Positions 1-9,640 of a DNA stretch of 9,889 nucleotides are shown here, piece by piece. Numbering within the stretch: the stretch's first letter is position 1; each line of letters opens with the position of its first letter. The notes under the pieces are model-generated. The model made no database searches, was not told the DNA's origin, and saw nothing but the letters and a program-made list of their open reading frames with translations. The position numbers were made by a program, and so were the translations under genes. This stretch comes from Candidatus Woesearchaeota archaeon (lineage in GTDB: Archaea; Nanobdellota; Nanobdellia; Pacearchaeales; GW2011-AR1): NCBI GenBank assembly GCA_964520275.1, contig CAZFNY010000016.1, positions 1 to 9,889 of the forward strand. Direction: 5' to 3'.

Positions 1-2
1 AG

Positions 3-20
3 AAAGATAATATTATCTTT
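3..20. repeat. Perfect 18-bp palindrome AAAGATAATATTATCTTT, followed by a GGTGA-N10-TCACC inverted repeat (21-40)
   Basis: Read directly; the reverse complement is identical. It lies about 100 bp upstream of the TATA box of the 151 gene, at the window edge. Confidence 0.6.
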
Positions 21-121
21 GGTGATTATAGGAATTCACCAAAGCCTGAAATAGTAATCTATTTTTTAAGGTAAACTTTTGTAAGTATATTCTAGCAAAT
101 CTATTTAAATTCACAGAAAAG

Positions 122-129
122 TTTATAAA
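122..129 (+). promoter_or_regulatory. TATA box TTTATAAA for the PRC-barrel gene (leaderless geometry)
   Basis: Archaeal TATA consensus centred about 26 nt upstream of the ATG at 151. No SD sequence is present. Confidence 0.45.
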
Positions 130-150
130 TAAATTATATGTTAACTTACT

Positions 151-411
151 ATGCAAGATAACAAAAACCCTTACAGTGCTATTATCGGAAAAATGATAGT
201 GACTAAAGAGGGGAAAAGACTAGGATTTGTTAAAGACATAACCTTTGAAACACGGTCAGGAGAGATAATAAGCTTAGTTGTAAAAGACGCAACACCTTAT
301 ACAAGGACTCTTAATCTTGAAAAGACTTCTTCAAGCGATTTTTTGATACCTTACAGTGCAATAATCGCAATAGGTGATTTTGTGATAGTTTCAGAAGAAG
401 ACTTAATTTAA
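151..411 (+). CDS. Small stand-alone PRC-barrel domain protein (86 aa)
   Basis: The segment GKMIVTKEGKRLGFVKDITFETRSGEIISLVV plus the C-terminal IPYSAIIAIGDFVIV is a typical PRC beta-barrel signature. The gene has its own TATA box and a TAA stop. Confidence 0.7.
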   Translation: MQDNKNPYSAIIGKMIVTKEGKRLGFVKDITFETRSGEIISLVVKDATPYTRTLNLEKTSSSDFLIPYSAIIAIGDFVIVSEEDLI

Positions 412-1241: not shown

Positions 1242-1973
1242 ATGGATCAAATAAGAGAGGCGTTTCAAAAGGTTAGAGACAATATTAATAATTTAACTTA
1301 CGAAATAGATTCCTTAAAAATAAGCCTAGCAGAAGTTAATTGGAGGCTCTCTAGATTAACAGACGAAATAAAAAGCTTTGTATTTCAACATTCAAATCAA
1401 CCTCAAGACAGCCATTTTACAGGACAATCCATTCCAACACATATCCCACAAATCCCAACACACCCAACACATTCTTCGACAGATAATTTCCATTTTAAGC
1501 CTCAAAAAGCCCAAAATTGGGTTATTTCCACAGGAAATGAAGGGGTTCCAACAGACAGACAGACAGACCAACAGACAGACAGACACACCAGAATACCTCC
1601 ATTTATCCAAGAAAAAACAAACCCCATTCAATCCAAAAACTCTTTGGCAAACGCTTCTGAAATTATTAATTCTCTCAACTCTCTTAAAAAAGAGATACGT
1701 CTCAAATTTAAACGGCTTACTGAGAGAGAGATTCTTGTGTTCTCTACACTCTATCAACTCGACGAGGAAAGAGGGTTTGCTGACTATAAATCCCTCGCCC
1801 AAAAACTTAATCTTACTGAAAGCTCTATTAGAGATTATGTTGGCCGGCTTATAGTCAAGGGAATTCCCGTCGATAAAACCAAATTGAATAACAAAAACAT
1901 CCAATTGAATATTCCAGAAGCCCTTAAACAAACAGCCTCTCTTTCCACAATTTTACAACTTCGAGATCTTTAA
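1242..1973 (+). CDS. Coiled-coil / low-complexity repeat linker / C-terminal TrmB-like wHTH protein (243 aa); paralog of 2277-2915
   Basis: N-terminal heptad-like segment (IREAFQKVRDNINNLTYEIDSLKISLAEVNWRLSRLTDEIKSF). Linker with IPTHIPQIPTHPTH and TDRQTDQQTDRHT repeats. C-terminal LTEREILVFSTLYQLDEERGFADYKSLAQKLNLTESSIRDYVGRLIVKGIPV is a wHTH. Confidence 0.65.
   Translation: MDQIREAFQKVRDNINNLTYEIDSLKISLAEVNWRLSRLTDEIKSFVFQHSNQPQDSHFTGQSIPTHIPQIPTHPTHSSTDNFHFKPQKAQNWVISTGNEGVPTDRQTDQQTDRHTRIPPFIQEKTNPIQSKNSLANASEIINSLNSLKKEIRLKFKRLTEREILVFSTLYQLDEERGFADYKSLAQKLNLTESSIRDYVGRLIVKGIPVDKTKLNNKNIQLNIPEALKQTASLSTILQLRDL
1434..1470 (+). repeat. CCAACAC x3 (1434-1440, 1455-1461, 1464-1470) inside the CDS linker
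   Basis: Read directly; encodes the PTH-rich peptide repeats. Confidence 0.7.
1548..1588 (+). repeat. Tetranucleotide microsatellite: CCA(ACAG)4AC followed by CCA(ACAG)3AC, inside the CDS linker
   Basis: The sequence ccaACAGACAGACAGACAGACccaACAGACAGACAGACacacc was read directly. It encodes TDRQTDQQTDRHT. Confidence 0.85.
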
Positions 1974-2276: not shown

Positions 2277-2915
2277 TTACACTTTTTCTTCATTTTTCTC
2301 TGTTTTTTCAGGCTTTCTGCTACTACCTATCTTAACTTTCACTTTTGATTTTTTTAGTATTTTCTCCTTCATATCTTCTTCAATATAAACTCTCTTTTTT
2401 CCATTCTTTTCAACCACCTCTAATATCAACCCCTCACTTTTCTGTTTTATGCTGTTTATTTGCCCCCTTATAGTTGATCTCTCTTTTCCAAGCATAGCCG
2501 CTAGATCATCATAACTAAGCCTCATCTCTGAATTTAATAATACCCATAAGATTGCCCTTTCAGTAACAGAAAATTGGTCTAATTTTGATGTTTGAACACC
2601 TGTTTGAACACCTGTTTGAACAGCATAAACAGCTGTTTGTTTATCCCAAACACCTCTGGGTGTTTTAAACACCCTTGCAGGCTTCAATTCATTCATCATT
2701 GCAAGAACATTTTTCAATCCTTCCACTTCTCCCTGAATCGACGACAAAACCTCGTTTAAGTCTTCAATCTGTCTTTGTTGTAAATTTTTTTCAGAATTAA
2801 GGTGTTTGATCCAGCCAGTAACAGCAGTAATATCTTTTTTTACACTTTCAAAACTTTTTTTTGTGTCTTCTTCAACACGTCCTACATCTCCTTTTTTGAA
2901 CAGCCATCCAAACAT
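2277..2915 (-). CDS. Coiled-coil / repeat linker / C-terminal wHTH protein (212 aa); paralog of 1242-1973, convergent with it
   Basis: Same architecture as 1242-1973. N-terminal SFESVKKDITAVTGWI aligns with AFQKVRDNINNLTYEI of the paralog, followed by a coiled coil (QIEDLNEVLSSIQGEVEGLKNVL). Linker is VQTGVQTGVQT. The wHTH is VTERAILWVLLNSEMRLSYDDLAAMLGKERSTIRGQINSIKQK, followed by a K/E-rich tail. Confidence 0.65.
   Translation of the reverse strand: MFGWLFKKGDVGRVEEDTKKSFESVKKDITAVTGWIKHLNSEKNLQQRQIEDLNEVLSSIQGEVEGLKNVLAMMNELKPARVFKTPRGVWDKQTAVYAVQTGVQTGVQTSKLDQFSVTERAILWVLLNSEMRLSYDDLAAMLGKERSTIRGQINSIKQKSEGLILEVVEKNGKKRVYIEEDMKEKILKKSKVKVKIGSSRKPEKTEKNEEKV
2589..2624. repeat. 12-bp tandem repeat x3 (TGTTTGAACACC, TGTTTGAACACC, TGTTTGAACAGC) inside the CDS
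   Basis: Read directly; encodes (VQTG)n on the minus strand. Each unit carries the TGTT-NN-AACA dyad seen in the upstream iteron field. Confidence 0.9.
2627..2673. repeat. Intragenic motif cluster: perfect palindrome AAACAGCTGTTT (2627-2638) and AAACACC-tctg-GGTGTTT-t-AAACACC (2648-2673)
   Basis: Read directly; same motif family as 2925-3206. Confidence 0.85.
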
Positions 2916-2924
2916 ACTTTCCCT

Positions 2925-3206
2925 AAAACACCCCCATTTAAAAATCTTTTGTTTTTACGTCGAAAATTTTTCCACTAAAACAGAGAAAAACACTAAAATT
3001 ATCTATCGAAGCCCCTGTTTTTCCTATGGAAAACCCTGGCTGTTTGAAATTTATTTTTTTGGAAAACAGCCTGTTTAAACAGCCACAAACACTTTCAAAC
3101 ACCCAAACAGCAAAAACACCCCCTAAAAACACTCGTTCAAATTACTCTCTCTGCAGTTTTTCTCTCGTCGACAACTAACACAAACAGCTGTTTAAACACC
3201 CCCCCC
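2925..3206. repeat. Non-coding iteron field, G-poor on the + strand. Many AAACA[C/G]C copies, the palindromes CTGTTTAAACAG (3071-3082) and AAACAGCTGTTT (3182-3193), and three direct AAACACCCCC copies (2926-2935, 3114-3123, 3194-3203, the last extended to C8)
   Basis: Read directly. The two annotated ORFs here (2806-3078 +, 2938-3132 -) have junk-like translations. Confidence 0.8.
2936..2945 (-). promoter_or_regulatory. TATA box (minus strand ATTTTTAAAT) for the 2277-2915 gene; a GGGGGTGTTT motif lies between the TATA box and the ATG
   Basis: Centred about 26 nt upstream of the ATG at 2915. The iteron copy at 2925-2935 occupies the expected transcription start region, which is an operator-like position. 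Confidence 0.4.
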
Positions 3207-3242
3207 AAACAAGCATAAACCATCAGATAAGGATTGTGTTAA

Positions 3243-3272: not shown

Positions 3273-3524
3273 ATGAAAAAGATAGTGAGGTTTGAGGATA
3301 TTGCAAGATATGAATCTTTTATTTTTGTCGGTTTGTTGATGACAATAGGAACAACAATAAAACTAGCTTGAGTCTATGATTTTTCTTCAGACTGGTTCTG
3401 GCTTATTGCAGGACTTGGATTGGTCGTTGAAGGCTCAATCTCTCTAATAAAACAGAAAAGATTTGATAAAAAATATAAGCTTATTGATGTTGGAAGTGAA
3501 GAGTATAAAAAGATTTATTCTTAA
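3273..3524 (+). pseudogene. Small two-TM membrane protein ORF (83 codons) interrupted by an in-frame TGA at 3369-3371
   Basis: Hand translation gives MKKIVRFEDIARYESFIFVGLLMTIGTTIKLA*VYDFSSDWFWLIAGLGLVVEGSISLIKQKRFDKKYKLIDVGSEEYKKIYS*. There are hydrophobic helices on both sides of the stop, and TGG to TGA is a single change. Confidence 0.4.
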
Positions 3525-3544
3525 AACACTAAAAATAATGGCCG

Positions 3545-3567
3545 TTCACTAAGTTAACCCAAGTGCA
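3545..3567 (+). repeat. Direct repeat copy A: TTCACTAAGTTAACCCAAGTGCA
   Basis: 21/23 identical to copy B. It starts 21 nt after the 3273-3524 stop. Confidence 0.85.
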
Positions 3568-3576
3568 AAAGAAAGC

Positions 3577-3584
3577 TTTATAAT
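3577..3584 (+). promoter_or_regulatory. TATA box TTTATAAT, plus a GGAGG Shine-Dalgarno at 3629-3633, for the 3640 ORF
   Basis: The TATA box lies about 60 nt upstream of the ATG. GGAGG lies 6 nt upstream of the ATG. This is the only clearly SD-led gene in the accessory region. Confidence 0.45.
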
Positions 3585-3639
3585 CTATATTTGCCTTAAA
3601 AGATTAACATTAACTAAATGTTAAAAAAGGAGGTTGAAA

Positions 3640-3807
3640 ATGGCAAAATTAACTGCCTGGCTGATAACACTTGTAGGTGTGCTTTTGATATTACCTTTGC
3701 TTAAGGTAGATATTGGAGCAAGTCTAAGTGCCTGGCTAATTGCATTGGCTTGGTTAATTATTGGTATAAGCAAGCTCATGCGAAACTACGGCAAAAAGAA
3801 GAAATAA
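3640..3807 (+). CDS. Small two-TM membrane protein (55 aa), below the ORF-track length cutoff
   Basis: Hand translation gives MAKLTAWLITLVGVLLILPLLKVDIGASLSAWLIALAWLIIGISKLMRNYGKKKK*. It has a strong SD, two hydrophobic helices and a basic C-terminus. Confidence 0.55.
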   Translation: MAKLTAWLITLVGVLLILPLLKVDIGASLSAWLIALAWLIIGISKLMRNYGKKKK

Positions 3808-3813
3808 ATTTAA

Positions 3814-3841
3814 TTTTTAATTAATCTTTTTCTATTTTATT
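3814..3841 (+). terminator. Oligo-T tracts (T5 at 3814-3818 and 3837-3841) after the 3640-3807 ORF
   Basis: Read directly; archaeal-type oligo-T termination signals. Confidence 0.3.
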
Positions 3842-3905
3842 CTCCTATCTTTTTAATTTATCATTTCCATACTTTTAGTTCTATTTTTCCACTTTCTTTT
3901 ATCCT

Positions 3906-3928
3906 TTCACTAAGCTAACCTAAGTGCA
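3906..3928 (+). repeat. Direct repeat copy B: TTCACTAAGCTAACCTAAGTGCA
   Basis: The arms TTCACTAA / TAAGTGCA are 6/8 complementary around the 7-nt spacer GCTAACC. Homology to copy A resumes at GCAAAAGAAA (3944-3953 versus 3565-3574). Confidence 0.85.
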
Positions 3929-3942
3929 CAACCCACATCATG

Positions 3943-3971
3943 CCGCAAAAGAAATAGCAAAAATTTTGCGG
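3943..3971 (+). other. Hairpin CCGCAAAA-N13-TTTTGCGG
   Basis: 8-bp perfect inverted repeat read directly, immediately after repeat copy B. Confidence 0.6.
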
Positions 3972-4020
3972 GAAAAATTAGAAAATTATCAAAAATTTCA
4001 AAATATTACAAAATATCACA
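3971..4020. repeat. Five phased A-tracts with exact 10-bp periodicity (ggaaaaatta gaaaattatc aaaaatttca aaatattaca aaatatcaca)
   Basis: Read directly. This is the hallmark of intrinsically curved DNA. It abuts the TATA-like ATTTTTAAAA at 4022-4031. Confidence 0.7.
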
Positions 4021-4054
4021 GATATTTTTAAAAAGTCTATTCATGAGATTAAAT

Positions 4055-4322
4055 AATGAGTTTTAAAGAAGATTTAGAAAAAAATGAGATTATAGGAAAA
4101 TTTTATATTTATTCTTAATCTCTGTTTCCAAGAATCATTTATAGGGTTGAAAGCCAATATGAAGATAGATTAGAACGTTTTCCTGAAATAAGACTTCCAA
4201 GAATAAGAGGTTCTTTGTTTGATTCTAGGTCTGGTCAATTTCTTGGAAAGGGAGTTAAGGAGTTGTCACACTGTCTTAAGGATCAAAATGCCCCAGAAGA
4301 TTTTAAACCAAAGCCAGAATAA
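4055..4322 (+). pseudogene. Decayed ORF remnant: a 10-codon start fragment, a frameshift at an A8 run (4077-4084), an in-frame TAA (4116-4118), then a 67-codon open frame without a start codon (4119-4322)
   Basis: Hand translation of the tail gives SLFPRIIYRVESQYEDRLERFPEIRLPRIRGSLFDSRSGQFLGKGVKELSHCLKDQNAPEDFKPKPE*. No family was recognised. Confidence 0.25.
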
Positions 4323-4326
4323 TCCT

Positions 4327-4349
4327 TTCACTTTCCTTACCTTAGTTCA
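4327..4349 (+). repeat. Direct repeat copy C (diverged): TTCACTTTCCTTACCTTAGTTCA
   Basis: Including flanks (ATCCTTTCACT...CACAA, 4322-4352) it is 25/31 identical to copy B. It begins right at the stop of the 4119-4322 remnant. Confidence 0.65.
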
Positions 4350-4442
4350 CAAAAATACAACCTTCCTCTGAAAAACCGGTTTTATGTGTAAAAACTTCCC
4401 CTAATACTGATTAGAAGAGGTTCTTTGAATATATAGCCGAAA

Positions 4443-4452
4443 AGTATTTATT
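4443..4452 (+). promoter_or_regulatory. TATA-like AGTATTTATT for the HNH/recombinase operon
   Basis: Centred about 26 nt upstream of the ATG at 4474. Confidence 0.35.
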
Positions 4453-4473
4453 CTCCAAATTCTTGATTTAAAT

Positions 4474-4914
4474 ATGGTTATTATTAAATGCAATAGTTGT
4501 GGAAAAGAAACATTCAATCATTCAAAGGGGCTGTGTATTACTTGCTACAAAAAATTAAAATGGAAACCCAAGACGATTATATGTAAAAGATGCAACCAAG
4601 AGAAACCCCATCATGCAAAAGGATATTGTAAAAATTGTTCAAACATATTATTTCATTATGATTTAATCAAAAAACACAATTATAGGAAATGGCATAATAT
4701 AGAGTTGGATTATTATAATAAAATTACCCAGAAATGCGTACTCTGTGGTTTTGACAAAGCTGTAGATTTACACCATTTAGACCAAAATAAAAAGAATAAT
4801 TCAGAGTCTAATCTAATTGGATTATGTCCAAATCACCATAAAATAATTCACCTGCAAGAATATAAAGACAAGATGTTAAAACTTATAGAGAAAAAGAGGA
4901 AGGTAGATTTATGA
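4474..4914 (+). CDS. Tandem zinc-ribbon plus HNH endonuclease domain protein (146 aa)
   Basis: Two copies of C-x2-C-x8-KG-x-C-x2-C (C6/C9/C21/C24 and C37/C40/C52/C55). The C-terminal CVLCG...DLHHLD...N...NLIGLCPNHHKIIH is a classic HNH beta-beta-alpha-metal motif. Its TGA stop overlaps the next ATG (ATGATG). Confidence 0.75.
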   Translation: MVIIKCNSCGKETFNHSKGLCITCYKKLKWKPKTIICKRCNQEKPHHAKGYCKNCSNILFHYDLIKKHNYRKWHNIELDYYNKITQKCVLCGFDKAVDLHHLDQNKKNNSESNLIGLCPNHHKIIHLQEYKDKMLKLIEKKRKVDL

Positions 4915-5741
4915 TGCAAAAAGAGGAAGTGGATAAATACACTGAAAAAATTAAGACAGAGTTAAAGATTAGGGGGAGTAGCCCAAGAACCATAGGGTCT
5001 TATCTTTTCTTTCTCCAACCATTCTTAGAGTCAATTCCAGATCCAAAAAGTGTTGAGGTTGACCAGGTCAAAACCTTTTTAGCCAGCCTAATAGATAGAT
5101 ATAGCAACAAATCCAGGTCTTTGGCTGTCTCTAGTCTTAGATTTTTCTTTAAACGAGTTATAGACCGTCCAGATATTTTTGTTAAGTTAGAAGTTCCAAA
5201 AAAACAAAAAAGACTGCCAGTAGTATTATCTGTCCAAGAAGTTAAAGATTTGTTAGATTCTGCCAATTTTCTTAAAAGTCAACTAATCATAAGGATGTTA
5301 TACTCTTCTGGCCTGAGAGTTTCAGAACTTGTTAATCTTACGCCTATGGATCTAGATTTTCAACAGAATATTGGGTGGGTTAGAAAGGGCAAGGGTAGCA
5401 AGGATAGAATCTTTAAGATAGCCGAAAAGATTAACAAACAACTTCAAAAGTATTTAGATAAGAATCCAGAAAACAAATATCTCTTTTCAAAAGATCGCCC
5501 CATGTCTACTAGGAATGTTCAAATAATCATAAAAAAAGCAGCAAAACGGGCAGGAATTAATAAAAAAGTAACCCCTCACACATTGAGACACAGTTTTGCC
5601 ACCCATTTGTTAGAAGGAGGAGAGAATTTATTTGTCATACAACAGCTATTAGGTCACGAAAACCTCGAAACAACAAGAATTTATGCCCATATCAGCCAAG
5701 AGCAAATCAAGAATGTAAAATCGCCTTTGGACAGGCTATAA
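4911..5741 (+). CDS. Tyrosine recombinase, XerC/XerD/XerA-like (phage integrase family), 276 aa
   Basis: Full catalytic set: R136 (SGLRVSEL), GKGSKDR lysine, H223-TL-R226 (HTLRHSFATHLL), H249 and Y258 (GHENLETTRIYAHI). It also has an N-terminal SAM-like core-binding segment. Confidence 0.9.
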   Translation: MMQKEEVDKYTEKIKTELKIRGSSPRTIGSYLFFLQPFLESIPDPKSVEVDQVKTFLASLIDRYSNKSRSLAVSSLRFFFKRVIDRPDIFVKLEVPKKQKRLPVVLSVQEVKDLLDSANFLKSQLIIRMLYSSGLRVSELVNLTPMDLDFQQNIGWVRKGKGSKDRIFKIAEKINKQLQKYLDKNPENKYLFSKDRPMSTRNVQIIIKKAAKRAGINKKVTPHTLRHSFATHLLEGGENLFVIQQLLGHENLETTRIYAHISQEQIKNVKSPLDRL

Positions 5742-5742
5742 A

Positions 5743-6278
5743 ATGATTATTAAACCAACATCAACAGAAGAGGCTATGAAATTTTTATATACTATCTTAA
5801 ATCAAGGCGACTCAAGATATAATAATCCGGCAGAGGAATTTTTGCTTGCTTCAGCAATTTTAGATGGTGCTATTTCTTTAGAAAAAAAAAAGACCTGCCC
5901 AATACAATAGATTTAACAAATGAAGAATCTGGAAAAATCTCCAATCCACAGAAAAAGGAAAAAACTATTGCTAAACTTCTTTTAAAAAATGCGGGATTCA
6001 AAGAGGAGGAAATATATTTTGAAAGGATGTTCAGGGGTTCTAGACCAGATGTTTTAGGAGAAAAAGATAATATGCTCATTCCTGTTGAATGTTGTTCTTG
6101 TCGCGTCAATAAAATTATAGATTATCTAAATTATGTTCAAGAAGTTTAGGTTTTTACTCGTGATGATTTTGAGTGGTTTATTTTTAGAAAAGGGGTGAAT
6201 TGGGATAAAATTATAAGATTTAATGAACAAAGACTAAAAGAACTCAAAAAGATAAAATTCCCAACAGATAATTTATAA
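5743..6278 (+). pseudogene. Disrupted ORF with a PD-(D/E)xK (Hjc/restriction-endonuclease-like) motif pattern. It needs a -1 shift at an A10 run (5882-5891) and reads through an in-frame TAG (6147-6149)
   Basis: The ATG lies 1 nt after the recombinase stop. Hand translation gives MIIKPTSTEEAMKFLYTILNQGDSRYNNPAEEFLLASAILDGAISLEKKK | DLPNTIDLTNEESGKISNPQKKEKTIAKLLLKNAGFKEEEIYFERMFRGSRPDVLGEKDNMLIPVECCSCRVNKIIDYLNYVQEV*VFTRDDFEWFIFRKGVNWDKIIRFNEQRLKELKKIKFPTDNL*. The E...GF...PD...VEC pattern resembles Hjc-type nucleases, but the canonical Lys position is Cys. Confidence 0.4.
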
Positions 6279-6301: not shown

Positions 6302-6586
6302 ATGGAAAAATTAAATAATTCTCTCAATAAGGTAAGGGTTGGAGAAGATGATCGCGTGCCAATAGAAAGTAATAGGAAGGTATGGTTTTTGTGGACGACT
6401 ATCAGAGGAGATTGGGATGCTGAAGCAATAACAAGAAGTGATTCTGTGATTAATGCTTTAATTAGCTCAGAAGTCGTTAATGTTTTCTGTGTATGGCACG
6501 GAGGGTATAGAACCGATTTATTTTTGATGAATAAAGAAAAATTAATTAATAGATTAAAGAAATTAACTAAAAAAAATGGATACTAA
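6302..6586 (+). CDS. Hypothetical protein (94 aa); overlaps the next ORF by 11 nt across an A8 run
   Basis: ORF with its own TATA box. No motif was recognised, and no serine-recombinase YxRxST..Q motif is present. Confidence 0.45.
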   Translation: MEKLNNSLNKVRVGEDDRVPIESNRKVWFLWTTIRGDWDAEAITRSDSVINALISSEVVNVFCVWHGGYRTDLFLMNKEKLINRLKKLTKKNGY

Positions 6587-7007
6587 TGAAATTGAGATTT
6601 TAAGAAAAGAAAATGAAGAATTAAAAAAAGAGTTGGAAAAATTAAAATCCTTAAGAGTAAACCAGAAAAAGGGCATGACTGAAAAAGCACAAAAAGGAAA
6701 CCCTGTTGCCCGAGTTGCTTTTGGTTATAATATAGTCAAGGGGGTTCTTGTTCCTGCAGAAAATTCTTACATTATTGAAGAAATTTTCCAGGATTTTTTA
6801 AATCAGAATATCAGCCTCACACAGCTAGCCAAAAAATACGGGTTTTCAGTGAATGGATTAAAAAAGATTTTAACAAACTTTACATATATAAGCAAGATAA
6901 AATTTGATAGCAAAGTTTTTGACGGCAATCACCCTCCACTGATTTCTTCCACATTATTCAACCATGTTCAGAACAAATTGGAAAAGTTAGGGATTAAGCA
7001 GAACTAA
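6576..7007 (+). CDS. Orphan serine-recombinase 'Recombinase' (RD, PF07508-like) DNA-binding domain protein with an N-terminal coiled coil and no catalytic resolvase domain (143 aa)
   Basis: The segment VAFGYNIVKGVLVPAENSYIIEEIFQDFLNQNISLTQLAKKYGFSVNGLKKILTNFTYISKIKF...GNHPPLISSTLFNHVQNKL matches the large-serine-recombinase RD pattern (FGY..g.lv..e.E..iv..IF...l.g.S...iA..ln....g...W....v..IL.N..Y.G......H..iis...F..vQ). The N-terminus EIEILRKENEELKKELEKLK is helical and resembles helix alphaE. Confidence 0.65.
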   Translation: MDTNEIEILRKENEELKKELEKLKSLRVNQKKGMTEKAQKGNPVARVAFGYNIVKGVLVPAENSYIIEEIFQDFLNQNISLTQLAKKYGFSVNGLKKILTNFTYISKIKFDSKVFDGNHPPLISSTLFNHVQNKLEKLGIKQN

Positions 7008-7909: not shown

Positions 7910-8311
7910 CTAACGATACGATTTCTGCCTCTTTCTTCTCGCCTTGCTGTCTCCCGGCTTGTAAGTCTCTTTTCTCCTGACATCTGCGACAAGAAGGCTT
8001 CTGTCATACTCTATATATATCCTCTTTAATTCAGAAGATTTTGAAAAATCAACAATTGCCCTGGACAAAGCAACTCTTGAAGCTTCTATCTGGCCTTTTT
8101 CCCCTCCGCCCCTGACCTCAATCTGCACATCAAAATTAATTTTTCCAAGAATCTTTTCTGCTATCCTTAATGGCTCCTCTATCCTTAATCTGTCAAAAAG
8201 CTGAAGAGTCTTGTAATTTTTTTTATTTATAGTTATTCTTCCATTTCCCTCGCTGATGACCGCTCTTGCGACAGCAGCCTTTCTCTTTCCTGAAGTTATT
8301 ATCTCCTTCAT
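7910..8311 (-). CDS. rps9p: 30S ribosomal protein uS9 (archaeal S9p / S16e)
   Basis: GKRKAAVARA..., EVRGGGEKGQIEASRVALSRAIV, C-terminal PGDSKARRKRQKSYR. 4-nt overlap with the uL13 stop. Confidence 0.95.
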   Translation of the reverse strand: MKEIITSGKRKAAVARAVISEGNGRITINKKNYKTLQLFDRLRIEEPLRIAEKILGKINFDVQIEVRGGGEKGQIEASRVALSRAIVDFSKSSELKRIYIEYDRSLLVADVRRKETYKPGDSKARRKRQKSYR

Positions 8312-8700
8312 TGTGAGATGTCCTTTATTCGAATAAATTTATTTTTTTCAGATTCCAAGGCAATTTTTTCAGAAGATTCAAACTCTTTTGGAACCTTCGG
8401 ATAACATTTTATTTTTTTAAAAGCATCTCTCCCTCTCCCAGATCTATGGTCTGGAAGCATACCTCTTATAGCTCTCTTGACAATTAGATGGCTCAGTCTC
8501 GAATGCTTTGGTCCTCTCTGCCCGCTTCCAACTCTGCTTCTTTTTGCCTTAAAATTTTCTTCAATGTTTTTCCTGTTTCCAGTGATAATAACCTGCTCGC
8601 AATTCACAATTGCGATTTCTTCTCCTTTCAATGCTTCTTTAGCAGCATAACTGGCAAGTCTTCCCAAAACAGCGTCTTTTCCGTCGATGATTTTTGTCAT
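8308..8700 (-). CDS. rpl13p: 50S ribosomal protein uL13
   Basis: IIDGKDAVLGRLASYAAKEALKGEEIAIVNCEQVIITG ... AIRGMLP...GRGRDAFKKIKCY. ATGA-type overlaps on both sides. Confidence 0.95.
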   Translation of the reverse strand: MTKIIDGKDAVLGRLASYAAKEALKGEEIAIVNCEQVIITGNRKNIEENFKAKRSRVGSGQRGPKHSRLSHLIVKRAIRGMLPDHRSGRGRDAFKKIKCYPKVPKEFESSEKIALESEKNKFIRIKDISQ

Positions 8701-9068
8701 TTTAGTATCTTTACTCCTTTAGCTTCTGGATTTTTTTTAATTTCTTCAAGTATACTTAATGTCTCGCAACCAGTTTTTAAGAGCTTTTCTCTTGCTTTTT
8801 CTGAAAAATTAAGTGCAGCAATCTTGATTTTTTTGTCAACATTTCCCTGAGAAAGAACTTTTCCAGGAACAACAATTATCTCTCCTGCCTTTGCTTCTGG
8901 ATTTATTTTATCAAGATTAATCTCCACCCTGTTTCTTCTAGAGCCAGTAAGAACAGAAGCTGTTTCCAGCCAGCCTTTATGTTTTTTAGCAGCAATTATT
9001 GTCTCGACTAATTCTGGATTTCTTTTCTTCTGAACTTGTTTTTCAATCTTTGTTTTTGATTTAACCAT
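8697..9068 (-). CDS. rpl18e: 50S ribosomal protein eL18 (L18e)
   Basis: TGSRRNRVEINLDKIN, IVVPGKVLSQGNVDKKIKIAALNFSEKAREKLLKTGCETLSI. It holds the canonical position upstream of uL13-uS9 in archaeal operons. Confidence 0.9.
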   Translation of the reverse strand: MVKSKTKIEKQVQKKRNPELVETIIAAKKHKGWLETASVLTGSRRNRVEINLDKINPEAKAGEIIVVPGKVLSQGNVDKKIKIAALNFSEKAREKLLKTGCETLSILEEIKKNPEAKGVKILK

Positions 9069-9469: not shown

Positions 9470-9513
9470 ACTTTTTGCAACATATTTCTCTTTTTAAATC
9501 TTTTCCAAAACCA

Positions 9514-9597
9514 TGCGGAGTACAGGATTCGGACCTGCGCAGGCACTAAGCCAACAGATTTTGAGTCTGTCCCGTTTGACCACTCCGGCAACTCCGC
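9514..9597 (-). tRNA. tRNA-Leu (anticodon CAA), class II with long variable arm, 84 nt, no encoded CCA
   Basis: Hand-folded: GCGGAGT acceptor pairs with ACTCCGC. D arm is CCG/CGG with a GG-containing loop. Anticodon stem is ACAGA/TCTGT with loop CT-CAA-AA. Variable arm is GGC-TTAGT-GCC. T stem is GCAGG/CCTGT with loop TCCGAAT. Discriminator is A. Confidence 0.85.
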
Positions 9598-9640
9598 AAA
9601 AACAAAAATACGAGAATTATAGTGTTATTAAAACTTATTG

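Follow-up and report, generated by a model that had tools for sequence, protein, structure and literature searches.

Described Xer and Cassette Systems

Archaeal XerA is thought to have one job, the resolution of chromosome dimers at a single dif site. Modules of xerA and dif have been reported in some archaea (PMC5357621), and a dif site 5′ of the xerA operon has been reported for haloarchaea (Haloferax, Halobacterium). The dif site of Thermococcus kodakarensis, TTTTGATATAATGTACCTTATATGACAA, was confirmed by chromatin immunoprecipitation sequencing (ChIP-seq), and TAA(N)6-8TTA was named as the most conserved feature of archaeal dif sites (PMC11840125). Here we analyse a 9,889-nt stretch (the window; positions 1 to 9,889 of contig CAZFNY010000016.1) from a low-GC (about 30-35%) archaeon, in which three copies of a 26-bp repeat, here named the m-site, lie among small open reading frames (ORFs) 5′ of a dif-type site, an HNH endonuclease gene and xerA. 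The predicted host is a Pacearchaeota-like DPANN archaeon, and ten contigs from other samples are collinear with the window and 99.8-99.98% identical to it. Labels of the form L### denote loci on relatives' contigs that were compared with the window, and functional statements for the whole locus derive from sequence comparison.

The locus is like the archaeal XerA/dif module of Pyrococcus abyssi, T. kodakarensis and Thermoplasma acidophilum in its XerA equivalog and in the 28-bp site (11-6-11, TAA-N6-TTA) just 5′ of the xerA operon. It differs in the HNH gene between dif and xerA, in its position about 4-5 kb from cdc6/orc1 (six relatives) and not at the terminus, and in the preceding m-site array, an element that no described XerA/dif system includes. 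Acinetobacter pdif modules are comparable as small gene modules bounded by short recombinase-type sites beside, or dependent on, Xer, with content that appears shuffled between replicons or genomes. However, pdif sites resemble the host dif, alternate in orientation, are mostly found on plasmids and depend on XerC/D, whereas the sites of the window array are unlike dif, all direct (28/28 across the genomes compared), chromosomal and linked to a single Xer. Chromosomal integrons, including archaeal ones, share the arrangement of a tyrosine-recombinase gene beside a co-oriented array of short ORFs with repeated sites, and most of their module genes are likewise of unknown function. In contrast to integrons, this locus has no IntI-specific domain, its sites are 26 bp long instead of folded attCs of 57-141 nt and lack GTTRRRY, the array lies 5′ of the recombinase gene and points toward it, and a promoter is found in every module. 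The XerS/difSL and XerH/difH systems also have a single Xer gene genetically linked to dif, and bacterial dif sites attract integrative mobile elements exploiting Xer (IMEX; CTX, TLC, GGI), giving tandem site arrays; here, by contrast, nothing is integrated at dif and the repeats are not dif hybrids.

We propose, at a probability of about 0.4, that the m-sites serve for recombination, or as junctions, in a XerA-linked array whose modules are shuffled slowly. Little has been worked out about the routes by which very small DPANN genomes gain and replace accessory genes, and no description of such an array was found in the literature searched. Should m-sites be recombined by XerA or by a partner, a housekeeping enzyme would also serve as an engine of gene capture, and the array would be an archaeal analogue of integrons or dif modules with a new site type. 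Integrons and Xer-dependent dif modules would then be joined by a third kind of site-specific cassette system, for the first time one tied to a housekeeping recombinase of archaea. Either way, a large uncultured clade now has a precisely predicted dif of 28 bp, and the question can be put to a direct test with short oligonucleotides of dif and of m-sites A, B and C as substrates.

Table 1. Coordinates of the principal features of the window, with corresponding repeat regions in three relatives. HTH, helix-turn-helix.
Feature	Position	Strand	Description
HTH(+) gene	1242-1973	+	Conserved, 5′ of the array
HTH(-) gene	2277-2915	-	Conserved, 5′ of the array
Iteron-like/12-nt repeat regions	3038-3200 and 2588-2640 (L011 4898-5008; L100 4193-4310; L101 4122-4290)		
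First small ORF	3273-3524	+	83 codons, two predicted membrane helices, in-frame TGA at 3369-3371
m-site copy A	3545-3570 (23-mer 3545-3567)	+	TTCACTAAGTTAACCCAAGTGCAAAA, compact form; 29.7 bits
55-aa small membrane protein gene	3640-3807	+	158 homologues; Shine-Dalgarno-like AGGAGG 5′
m-site copy B	3906-3931 (23-mer 3906-3928)	+	TTCACTAAGCTAACCTAAGTGCACAA, identical to the family consensus; 42.4 bits
Third module	3932-4326	+	Very A+T-rich, no supported gene
m-site copy C	4327-4352 (23-mer 4327-4349)	+	TTCACTTTCCTTACCTTAGTTCACAA, last site of the array; 26.7 bits
dif-type site	4394-4421		ACTTCCCCTAA-TACTGA-TTAGAAGAGGT; 11-6-11, TAA-N6-TTA; preceded by conserved TTTTATGTGTAAAA
HNH endonuclease gene	4474-4914	+	N-terminal double zinc ribbon; between dif and xerA; overlaps the xerA start by 4 nt
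xerA, archaeal Xer tyrosine recombinase	4911-5741	+	276 aa; NF040815, Pfam Phage_integrase
L18e-L13-S9 ribosomal block	7910-9068	-	Archaeal/eukaryotic type
tRNA-Leu(CAA)	9513-9598	Opposite to the m-sites	Single tRNA of the window

A Lineage-Conserved 26-bp Repeat

All three repeats are real: they are copies of an imperfect palindrome of 26 bp, conserved in the lineage, with the consensus TTCACTAAGCTAACCTAAGTGCACAA. Outer arms (TTCAC/GTGMA) and inner arms (CTWAG) surround a conserved central ACC, and a CAA on the 3′ side follows the 23-mer core described in an earlier note on this DNA, so the conserved unit is 26 nt long. The copies lie on the plus strand at the positions and spacings that the earlier note had claimed, 361 nt (A-B) and 421 nt (B-C) apart. 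A degenerate 23-mer pattern matched A and B exactly; 0 matches were expected, and two or more were found in 0 of 200 shuffles. Copy C is weaker (81% over 31 nt), and an independent test was therefore made with a 26-column matrix trained only on 23 sites from eight other genomes, the window being left out. Copies B, A and C were the three best matches in the window on both strands (maximum in 200 shuffles, 14.0 bits), which upholds copy C as a repeat.

Copy B contains stop codons in all six frames and is followed by the flank CAACC...GCAAAAGAAATAGC, with the second box GCAAAAGAAATAGC at 3945-3958; this 3′ flank is conserved after many sites in relatives as CAACC-N8-10-CACTAAAGAAATA. Copy A and the orthologous site at L202 4921 have the compact form GTGCAAAAGAAAGC, in which GTGCA runs directly into AAAGAAAGC and then a TATA box, that of copy A being the box of the 55-aa gene (TTTATAAT, 3577-3584). 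The insertion of about 21 nt in B noticed earlier is thus real and corresponds to the difference between the flanked and compact forms. Copy C is orthologous to the last L202 site, at 5704 (L202 5704-5765 matches window 4327-4398). A fourth, degenerate site 5′ of ORF 3273-3524 was not found by position weight matrix, nhmmer or alignment; at most, a weak left-half resemblance to the m-site lies near 3215-3235.

Matrix scans detected 28 m-sites in nine genomes, 2-4 in each (window 3, L011 3, L013 3, L100 4, L101 3, L103 4, L112 2, L202 4, L205 2). All 28 lie between the HTH(-) gene and xerA and are oriented with the xerA strand (28/28, binomial p = 7e-9). Outside the arrays, the matrix score stayed below 10 bits at every one of 172,000 positions in about 86 kb of related loci, and an unfiltered nhmmer scan of 207 loci (1.19 Mb in total) found no m-site beyond these arrays. 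The search of relatives proposed earlier thus returned copies confined to arrays and flanking variable gene content, and, within these 207 loci, no copies in unrelated intergenic regions. A generic genome-wide repeat of repetitive extragenic palindromic (REP) or terminator type is at odds with this confinement; the sites also have no T-runs of their own. A structured RNA or hairpin terminator was rejected, as RNAalifold gave 0 consensus pairs for the m-site and its flank.

In the XerA tree, site-bearing genomes stand on both sides of the deepest split of this clade, which indicates that the feature is old and maintained, and site-free genomes (L014, L102, L015, L104) are nested among them, which indicates that the array was lost several times. 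No analogous arrays were found in the distant XerA loci L021-L028. The right half of the m-site and the central ACC are conserved far above the left half. Sites are homogenised within genomes, the within-genome similarity being 0.786 and the between-genome similarity 0.735 (permutation test, p <= 0.0008); such likeness counts in the integron literature as a hallmark of attC arrays in chromosomes (PMC9668308). The outer left arm of an array's first site retains 2.9/5 matches versus 4.2/5 elsewhere (p = 0.003), a difference that would be expected at the boundary of an array.

L103 is the one genome in which an m-site stands between dif and xerA: its fourth site (5617-5642) lies 3′ of dif (5504-5531), within the first 70 nt of a zinc-ribbon ORF (141 aa) in an operon with xerA. 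L015, which has no m-sites, carries a 152-nt direct repeat 5′ of xerA (943-1094 and 1848-1999, 99% identical, 905 nt apart). The AACTTTTAATCAAAAATCAAAAGTTYTAGC repeat family of L014, L104 and L102 was considered as an equivalent recombination site and rejected; with a TATA box about 25 nt before ATG, it looks like a promoter for leaderless mRNAs.

Recombinase and Proposed dif Site

The predicted product of xerA is the archaeal XerA, probably the housekeeping recombinase, and not an integron integrase. It matches the NCBIfam equivalog NF040815 (recomb_XerA_Arch) with 251.5 bits (cut-off 220) over model positions 2-262 of 263, and the Pfam families Phage_integrase (1.5e-43) and Phage_int_SAM_4 (1.6e-10). 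Residues R136, H223, R226, H249, Y258 and K161 are invariant in an alignment of 48 homologues, and we take K161 to be the probable catalytic lysine. Among solved structures, the protein is closest to P. abyssi XerA (4a8e, 3.8e-49) and T. acidophilum XerA (5hxy). More than 100 homologues with 68-89% identity, all about 275 aa long, share the synteny cdc6 ... HTH genes ... xerA ... S9/L13/L18e in many metagenome-assembled genomes; where named, they come from Pacearchaeota, Woesearchaeota or Nanoarchaeota. The equivalog score above cut-off and this number of syntenic homologues point to a conserved housekeeping XerA. Single-protein queries of genome-contig and metagenome collections returned mostly distant Xer relatives. 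The claim that a Xer-type tyrosine recombinase lies beside a conserved ORF-site-ORF-site array is borne out by the equivalog match and by the nine genomes with sites. In L101, a second tyrosine recombinase is encoded 3.3 kb away.

A true integron, with IntI and an attC array, was considered together with the generic repeat discussed above, and we regard this pair of explanations as highly improbable. NCBI names the homologues "tyrosine recombinase/integron integrase", and integrons exist in DPANN archaea (PMC9668308). However, the integron integrase model TIGR02249 scored 200.9 (cut-off 265) in two stretches that skip roughly model positions 181-251, so the IntI-specific insertion is missing. 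The protein has 276 aa versus about 320 aa for IntI, and IntI4 (2a3v) aligns only to residues 19-181. The earlier statement that the sites do not match attC holds, as GTTRRRY is absent from copies B and C, the sites are far shorter and no consensus fold was found. Rfam matches in the window are limited to the tRNA gene and a sub-threshold sRNA match at 6758-6885, both outside the array, and the integron or attC reading was rejected on these grounds. An att site derived from a tRNA fragment was likewise rejected, the only tRNA gene being unrelated and on the other strand.

We propose the site at 4394-4421 as the candidate cognate target of XerA and as a canonical archaeal dif. It lies between copy C and the HNH gene, with its left edge 44 nt 3′ of the end of the copy C 23-nt core, and overlaps the promoter region of the HNH-xerA operon. 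The earlier estimate that the last copy lies about 125 bp before the operon was accurate (124 nt to the HNH start), but the dif site in that gap had been overlooked. The XerA models together with this adjacent site point to a housekeeping XerA with its likely target just beyond copy C.

In an alignment of 130 nt 5′ of xerA, or of the xerA-containing operon, from 11 loci, homologous dif sites occur at the same position in ten further lineages, with one copy per 10-13-kb locus. The conserved element reads TTTTATGTGTAAGA, then ACTTCGCCTAA-TCAGTA-TTAGGCGAAAT, a TATA box TTTAAAAA, a third half-site ACTTCGCTTAAT, about 15 nt and ATG. Arm changes are paired: CAA/TTG replaces TAA/TTA in both arms and in the third half-site of the L202 lineage, and CGCC is changed to C(C/T)C in both arms of the window and L101, which indicates that the dyad symmetry of dif was kept in evolution. 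The more distant L026 (XerA identity 43%) carries ACTTCGTATAA-TGTATC-TTATACGAAAT (ACTTCGTATAATGTATCTTATACGAAAT) 74 nt 5′ of xerA, and about 18/28 positions of this site match the T. kodakarensis dif by hand count. The dif arms are near-palindromic, and the spacer orientation varies (TACTGA in the window, L101, L011 and L102; TCAGTA in L013, L100, L014 and L015).

No locus has an insertion at dif: in all 11, the left flank TTTTATGTGTAAGA, dif and the right flank with its promoter follow one another without a break. This bears on the possibility that the m-sites are dif-derived leftovers of IMEX-like elements integrated at dif via XerA, or pdif-type Xer modules. The array does abut dif-xerA, and Xer systems are known in which a single recombinase has dif beside it and mobile elements exploit such sites (PMC5357621); against this stand the conserved, contiguous flanks on both sides of dif, m-site arms unlike dif arms, direct and not alternating sites, and the finding of no m-site, dif pattern or close XerA in IMG/VR. 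Integration of IMEX at dif was rejected because of the contiguous flanks, and the explanation as a whole is very improbable. Even when pooled, the dif-hybrid, integron and generic-repeat readings remain quite unlikely. The earlier note had weighed its cassette array against a housekeeping XerA with a canonical dif elsewhere in an invariant locus; a probable housekeeping XerA and a site with the features of a canonical dif were indeed found, but the dif is adjacent and the locus is not invariant between related genomes.

In L108, on a contig sharing the P0097 XerA (275 aa, identical to the L104 protein), a 46-nt deletion (1307-1308 versus L104 3404-3449) takes away the outer left arm of dif together with its conserved left flank and stops just short of CTAAT; this may be a true variant or an artefact of assembly.

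The HNH protein matches the PHROGs families phrog_1271 (7.3e-9), phrog_8048 (1.2e-7) and phrog_2255 (6.7e-7). Its Pfam HNH-type matches are all below cut-offs, and it carries DLHHLD...N...LCPNHHKIIH. An 83% identical orthologue occupies the same place in L101. Zinc-ribbon HNH genes are found between dif and xerA in three genomes (window 4474-4914, L101 5564-6004, L205 5897-6367), and a shorter HNH gene lies directly 3′ of xerA in four (L014, L103, L101, L205). This patchy association suggests a selfish homing-type gene that may ride on the xerA locus. In the upstream-HNH genomes window and L101, the right dif arm is TTAGAAGAGGT versus TTAGGCGAAAT.

The gene cdc6/orc1 lies 0.45-0.8 kb 5′ of a PRC-barrel gene in 6/6 relatives whose contigs reach far enough (L011, L100, L101, L202, L205 and the P0009 contig; cf. 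window 1-411); in the two contigs that continue past cdc6/orc1, its neighbour is the gene for the PolD small subunit. This synteny places dif-xerA about 4-5 kb from a likely replication origin, not at the terminus as in Thermococcales.

Modules and Their Borders

Array intervals are 320-574 nt long and typically hold one small ORF with its own promoter. The module TATA box is typically ATAATCTTTAAAA, about 25-35 nt before ATG, a position that suggests leaderless mRNAs. Between the end of a site and the next ATG lie 46 to 131 nt, and the last m-site of an array is followed by no module promoter. Module proteins are mostly of small membrane or zinc-ribbon type, without known family. Several m-sites lie inside the 3′ ends of ORFs, where they are read in different frames (SQSSPKC versus ANLSAQ), or supply the stop codon, which argues that the site is conserved as DNA and not as protein.

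The earlier note placed a small ORF 5′ of each copy in the window. The 55-aa gene stands, with its many homologues; its promoter is unlike those of other modules in combining a TATA box with a Shine-Dalgarno-like leader. ORF 3273-3524, which sits 5′ of the first detectable m-site and matches no Pfam family, is interrupted by TGA. The open frame 4119-4322 fell away, as no start codon and no homologue were detected. The TGA is also present in the other contigs of the species read at that codon (including L004 and L005), and one source's gene caller reports an 83-aa product despite it; either this is a pseudogene, or the caller used a different genetic code.

Genomes with about 75% DNA identity in the genes flanking the array differ in its gene content. 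The modules bordered by the sites measure about 360-490 bp, and their content varies between species and is constant between strains. The 55-aa gene stands between the 83-aa ORF and no gene in the window, between genes for 91 and 94 aa in L202, and at the head of the array, ahead of one for 103 aa, in L205. Two of its homologues were looked up, and both lie between m-sites 5′ of xerA with different neighbours. The IEKPWAVY family occupies position 1 in L013 and positions 2 and 3 in L100, with different right flanks joined at the site. Homology blocks that contain a site start -14 to +12 nt from its left edge and run 35-83 nt rightward, and the sequences to their left are unrelated.

A clear tandem duplication of recent date is found in L100, with 72% identity over 471 nt and two pairs of sites that are identical. 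The m-sites might accordingly be the conserved 5′ piece of units (site, flank, promoter and gene) duplicated in tandem by unequal crossing-over, the gene bodies having later diverged or been replaced, with no dedicated protein acting on the sites. The rightward run of homology from the sites into shared flanks and the unit-like spacing would also fit this explanation, which we nevertheless consider unlikely: the 26 bp are kept across a XerA divergence of roughly 70% where the surroundings are unalignable, the site is kept in different reading frames, and most neighbouring modules show no homology beyond site and flank.

Possible Function of the m-Sites

The m-sites punctuate an array of small self-promoted modules between the divergent HTH gene and dif-(HNH)-xerA and, if they are junctions, would serve as binding and crossover sites for a site-specific recombinase. 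XerA would be the obvious candidate, being the only recombinase always encoded beside m-sites. Recombination between two co-oriented sites would release a module in the form of a small circle that could insert again at a different m-site, and over species-level time modules would be lost, gained and reordered. We infer the action of a recombinase on the m-sites, XerA as that enzyme and the movement of modules as circles from the comparison of loci. It is possible, though doubtful, that the locus is an undescribed DPANN gene-module platform coupled to dif-xerA, in which XerA or an unlinked recombinase would move genes via m-sites. The earlier proposal of a different cassette-type system in an archaeon is thus kept in that the array is not an integron and modules vary at the sites, but the sites are not dif-like and no recombination event at m-sites was observed in the contigs compared.

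Several findings weigh against junctions served by XerA. A dif half-site matrix applied to the m-site arms gave mean best scores of 0.4 and -2.6, and random max-of-29 scores in the control had a mean of -2.6 and a 95th percentile of 5.0. The arms therefore score at chance, and dif-like arms were rejected; the dif/pdif-like core of the earlier note is not borne out. A Xer tuned to ACTTCGCCTAA would not be expected to bind TTCACTAAG, and known Xer-exploiting sites mimic dif. Sites of a single array often disagree in the three variable bases at the centre, which would hinder complete strand exchange. Homology blocks end on the right 10-30 nt after the stop codon and not at the next site. The 55-aa module is 75% identical between genomes and its flanks 74-76%; being as diverged as its flanks, it appears vertically inherited. 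Each module has its own promoter, unlike most integron cassettes. L014 (XerA identity 82%), L102, L104 and L015 are without m-sites, yet have variable small genes there, and the negative search of IMG/VR counts on the same side. Finally, module gain or loss was absent among contigs with identical XerA in three populations (10, 8 and 10 contigs). Strain-level module polymorphism was thus rejected in all 28 contigs, and an apparent loss of xerA in L202 proved to be a scaffold gap of Ns.

In the main rival explanation, the m-sites could instead be operators for a dimeric DNA-binding protein that controls or insulates the small genes, with module turnover as ordinary gene flux; this is conceivable, but we hold it with considerable reserve. 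Either neighbouring HTH protein, XerA as a regulator or a chromosome-organising protein at dif could be the binding partner. The palindromic sequence would suit an operator, as would the m-site abutting AAAGAAAGC and the TATA box TTTATAAT in the 55-aa module, the second box CACTAAAGAAATA after many sites and the two HTH genes conserved beside the array. Genome-specific site variants fit co-evolution with a binding protein, variable small genes occupy this position even without m-sites, and the AT-rich region around dif organises chromosome domains in T. kodakarensis (PMC11840125). However, the distance from site to start varies (46 to 131 nt, with a TATA box in each module), the last site precedes no module promoter, and several sites lie within coding sequence. 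A homodimer operator would not usually be so much better conserved in the right half and ACC than in the left half; the arm of the first site is degenerate, and both HTH genes are also present in genomes without m-sites. Should the m-sites be operators or chromosome-organising sites, they would still be a conserved, unexplained element beside dif, within about 5 kb of cdc6/orc1.

Other Repeats and Neighbouring Genes

The conserved order in relatives is cdc6/orc1(-), the PRC-barrel gene, two small genes, HTH(+), HTH(-), variable small plus-strand ORFs and xerA, followed 3′ by variable genes (often HNH), a protein with only a "Recombinase" domain, and S9/L13/L18e.

An iteron-like palindromic repeat (AAACAGCTGTTTAAAC / CCTTAAACAGC) occurs in 2-6 copies between the HTH(-) gene and the array and is conserved across relatives. 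A 12-nt periodic version (TGTTTGAACACC, three times) inside the HTH(-) gene encodes a VQTG repeat linker and is likewise conserved. These repeats may be operators of the HTH proteins or origin-type repeats. The HTH(+) gene contains a microsatellite-like CAGA/CCAACAGACAGA repeat (1548-1587) that encodes a TDRQTD repeat linker.

On the 3′ side of xerA, the homopolymer at 5880-5889 is A10 in the window and A9 in four other contigs, which changes a small ORF from 55 aa in the window to 59 aa elsewhere; this is probably an assembly or sequencing difference. Further 3′, a 143-aa protein (6576-7007, overlapping ORF 6302-6586) matches only the central "Recombinase" domain of large serine recombinases (PF07508; phrog_95 positions 219-359 of 651), has no catalytic resolvase domain and is syntenic in many relatives.

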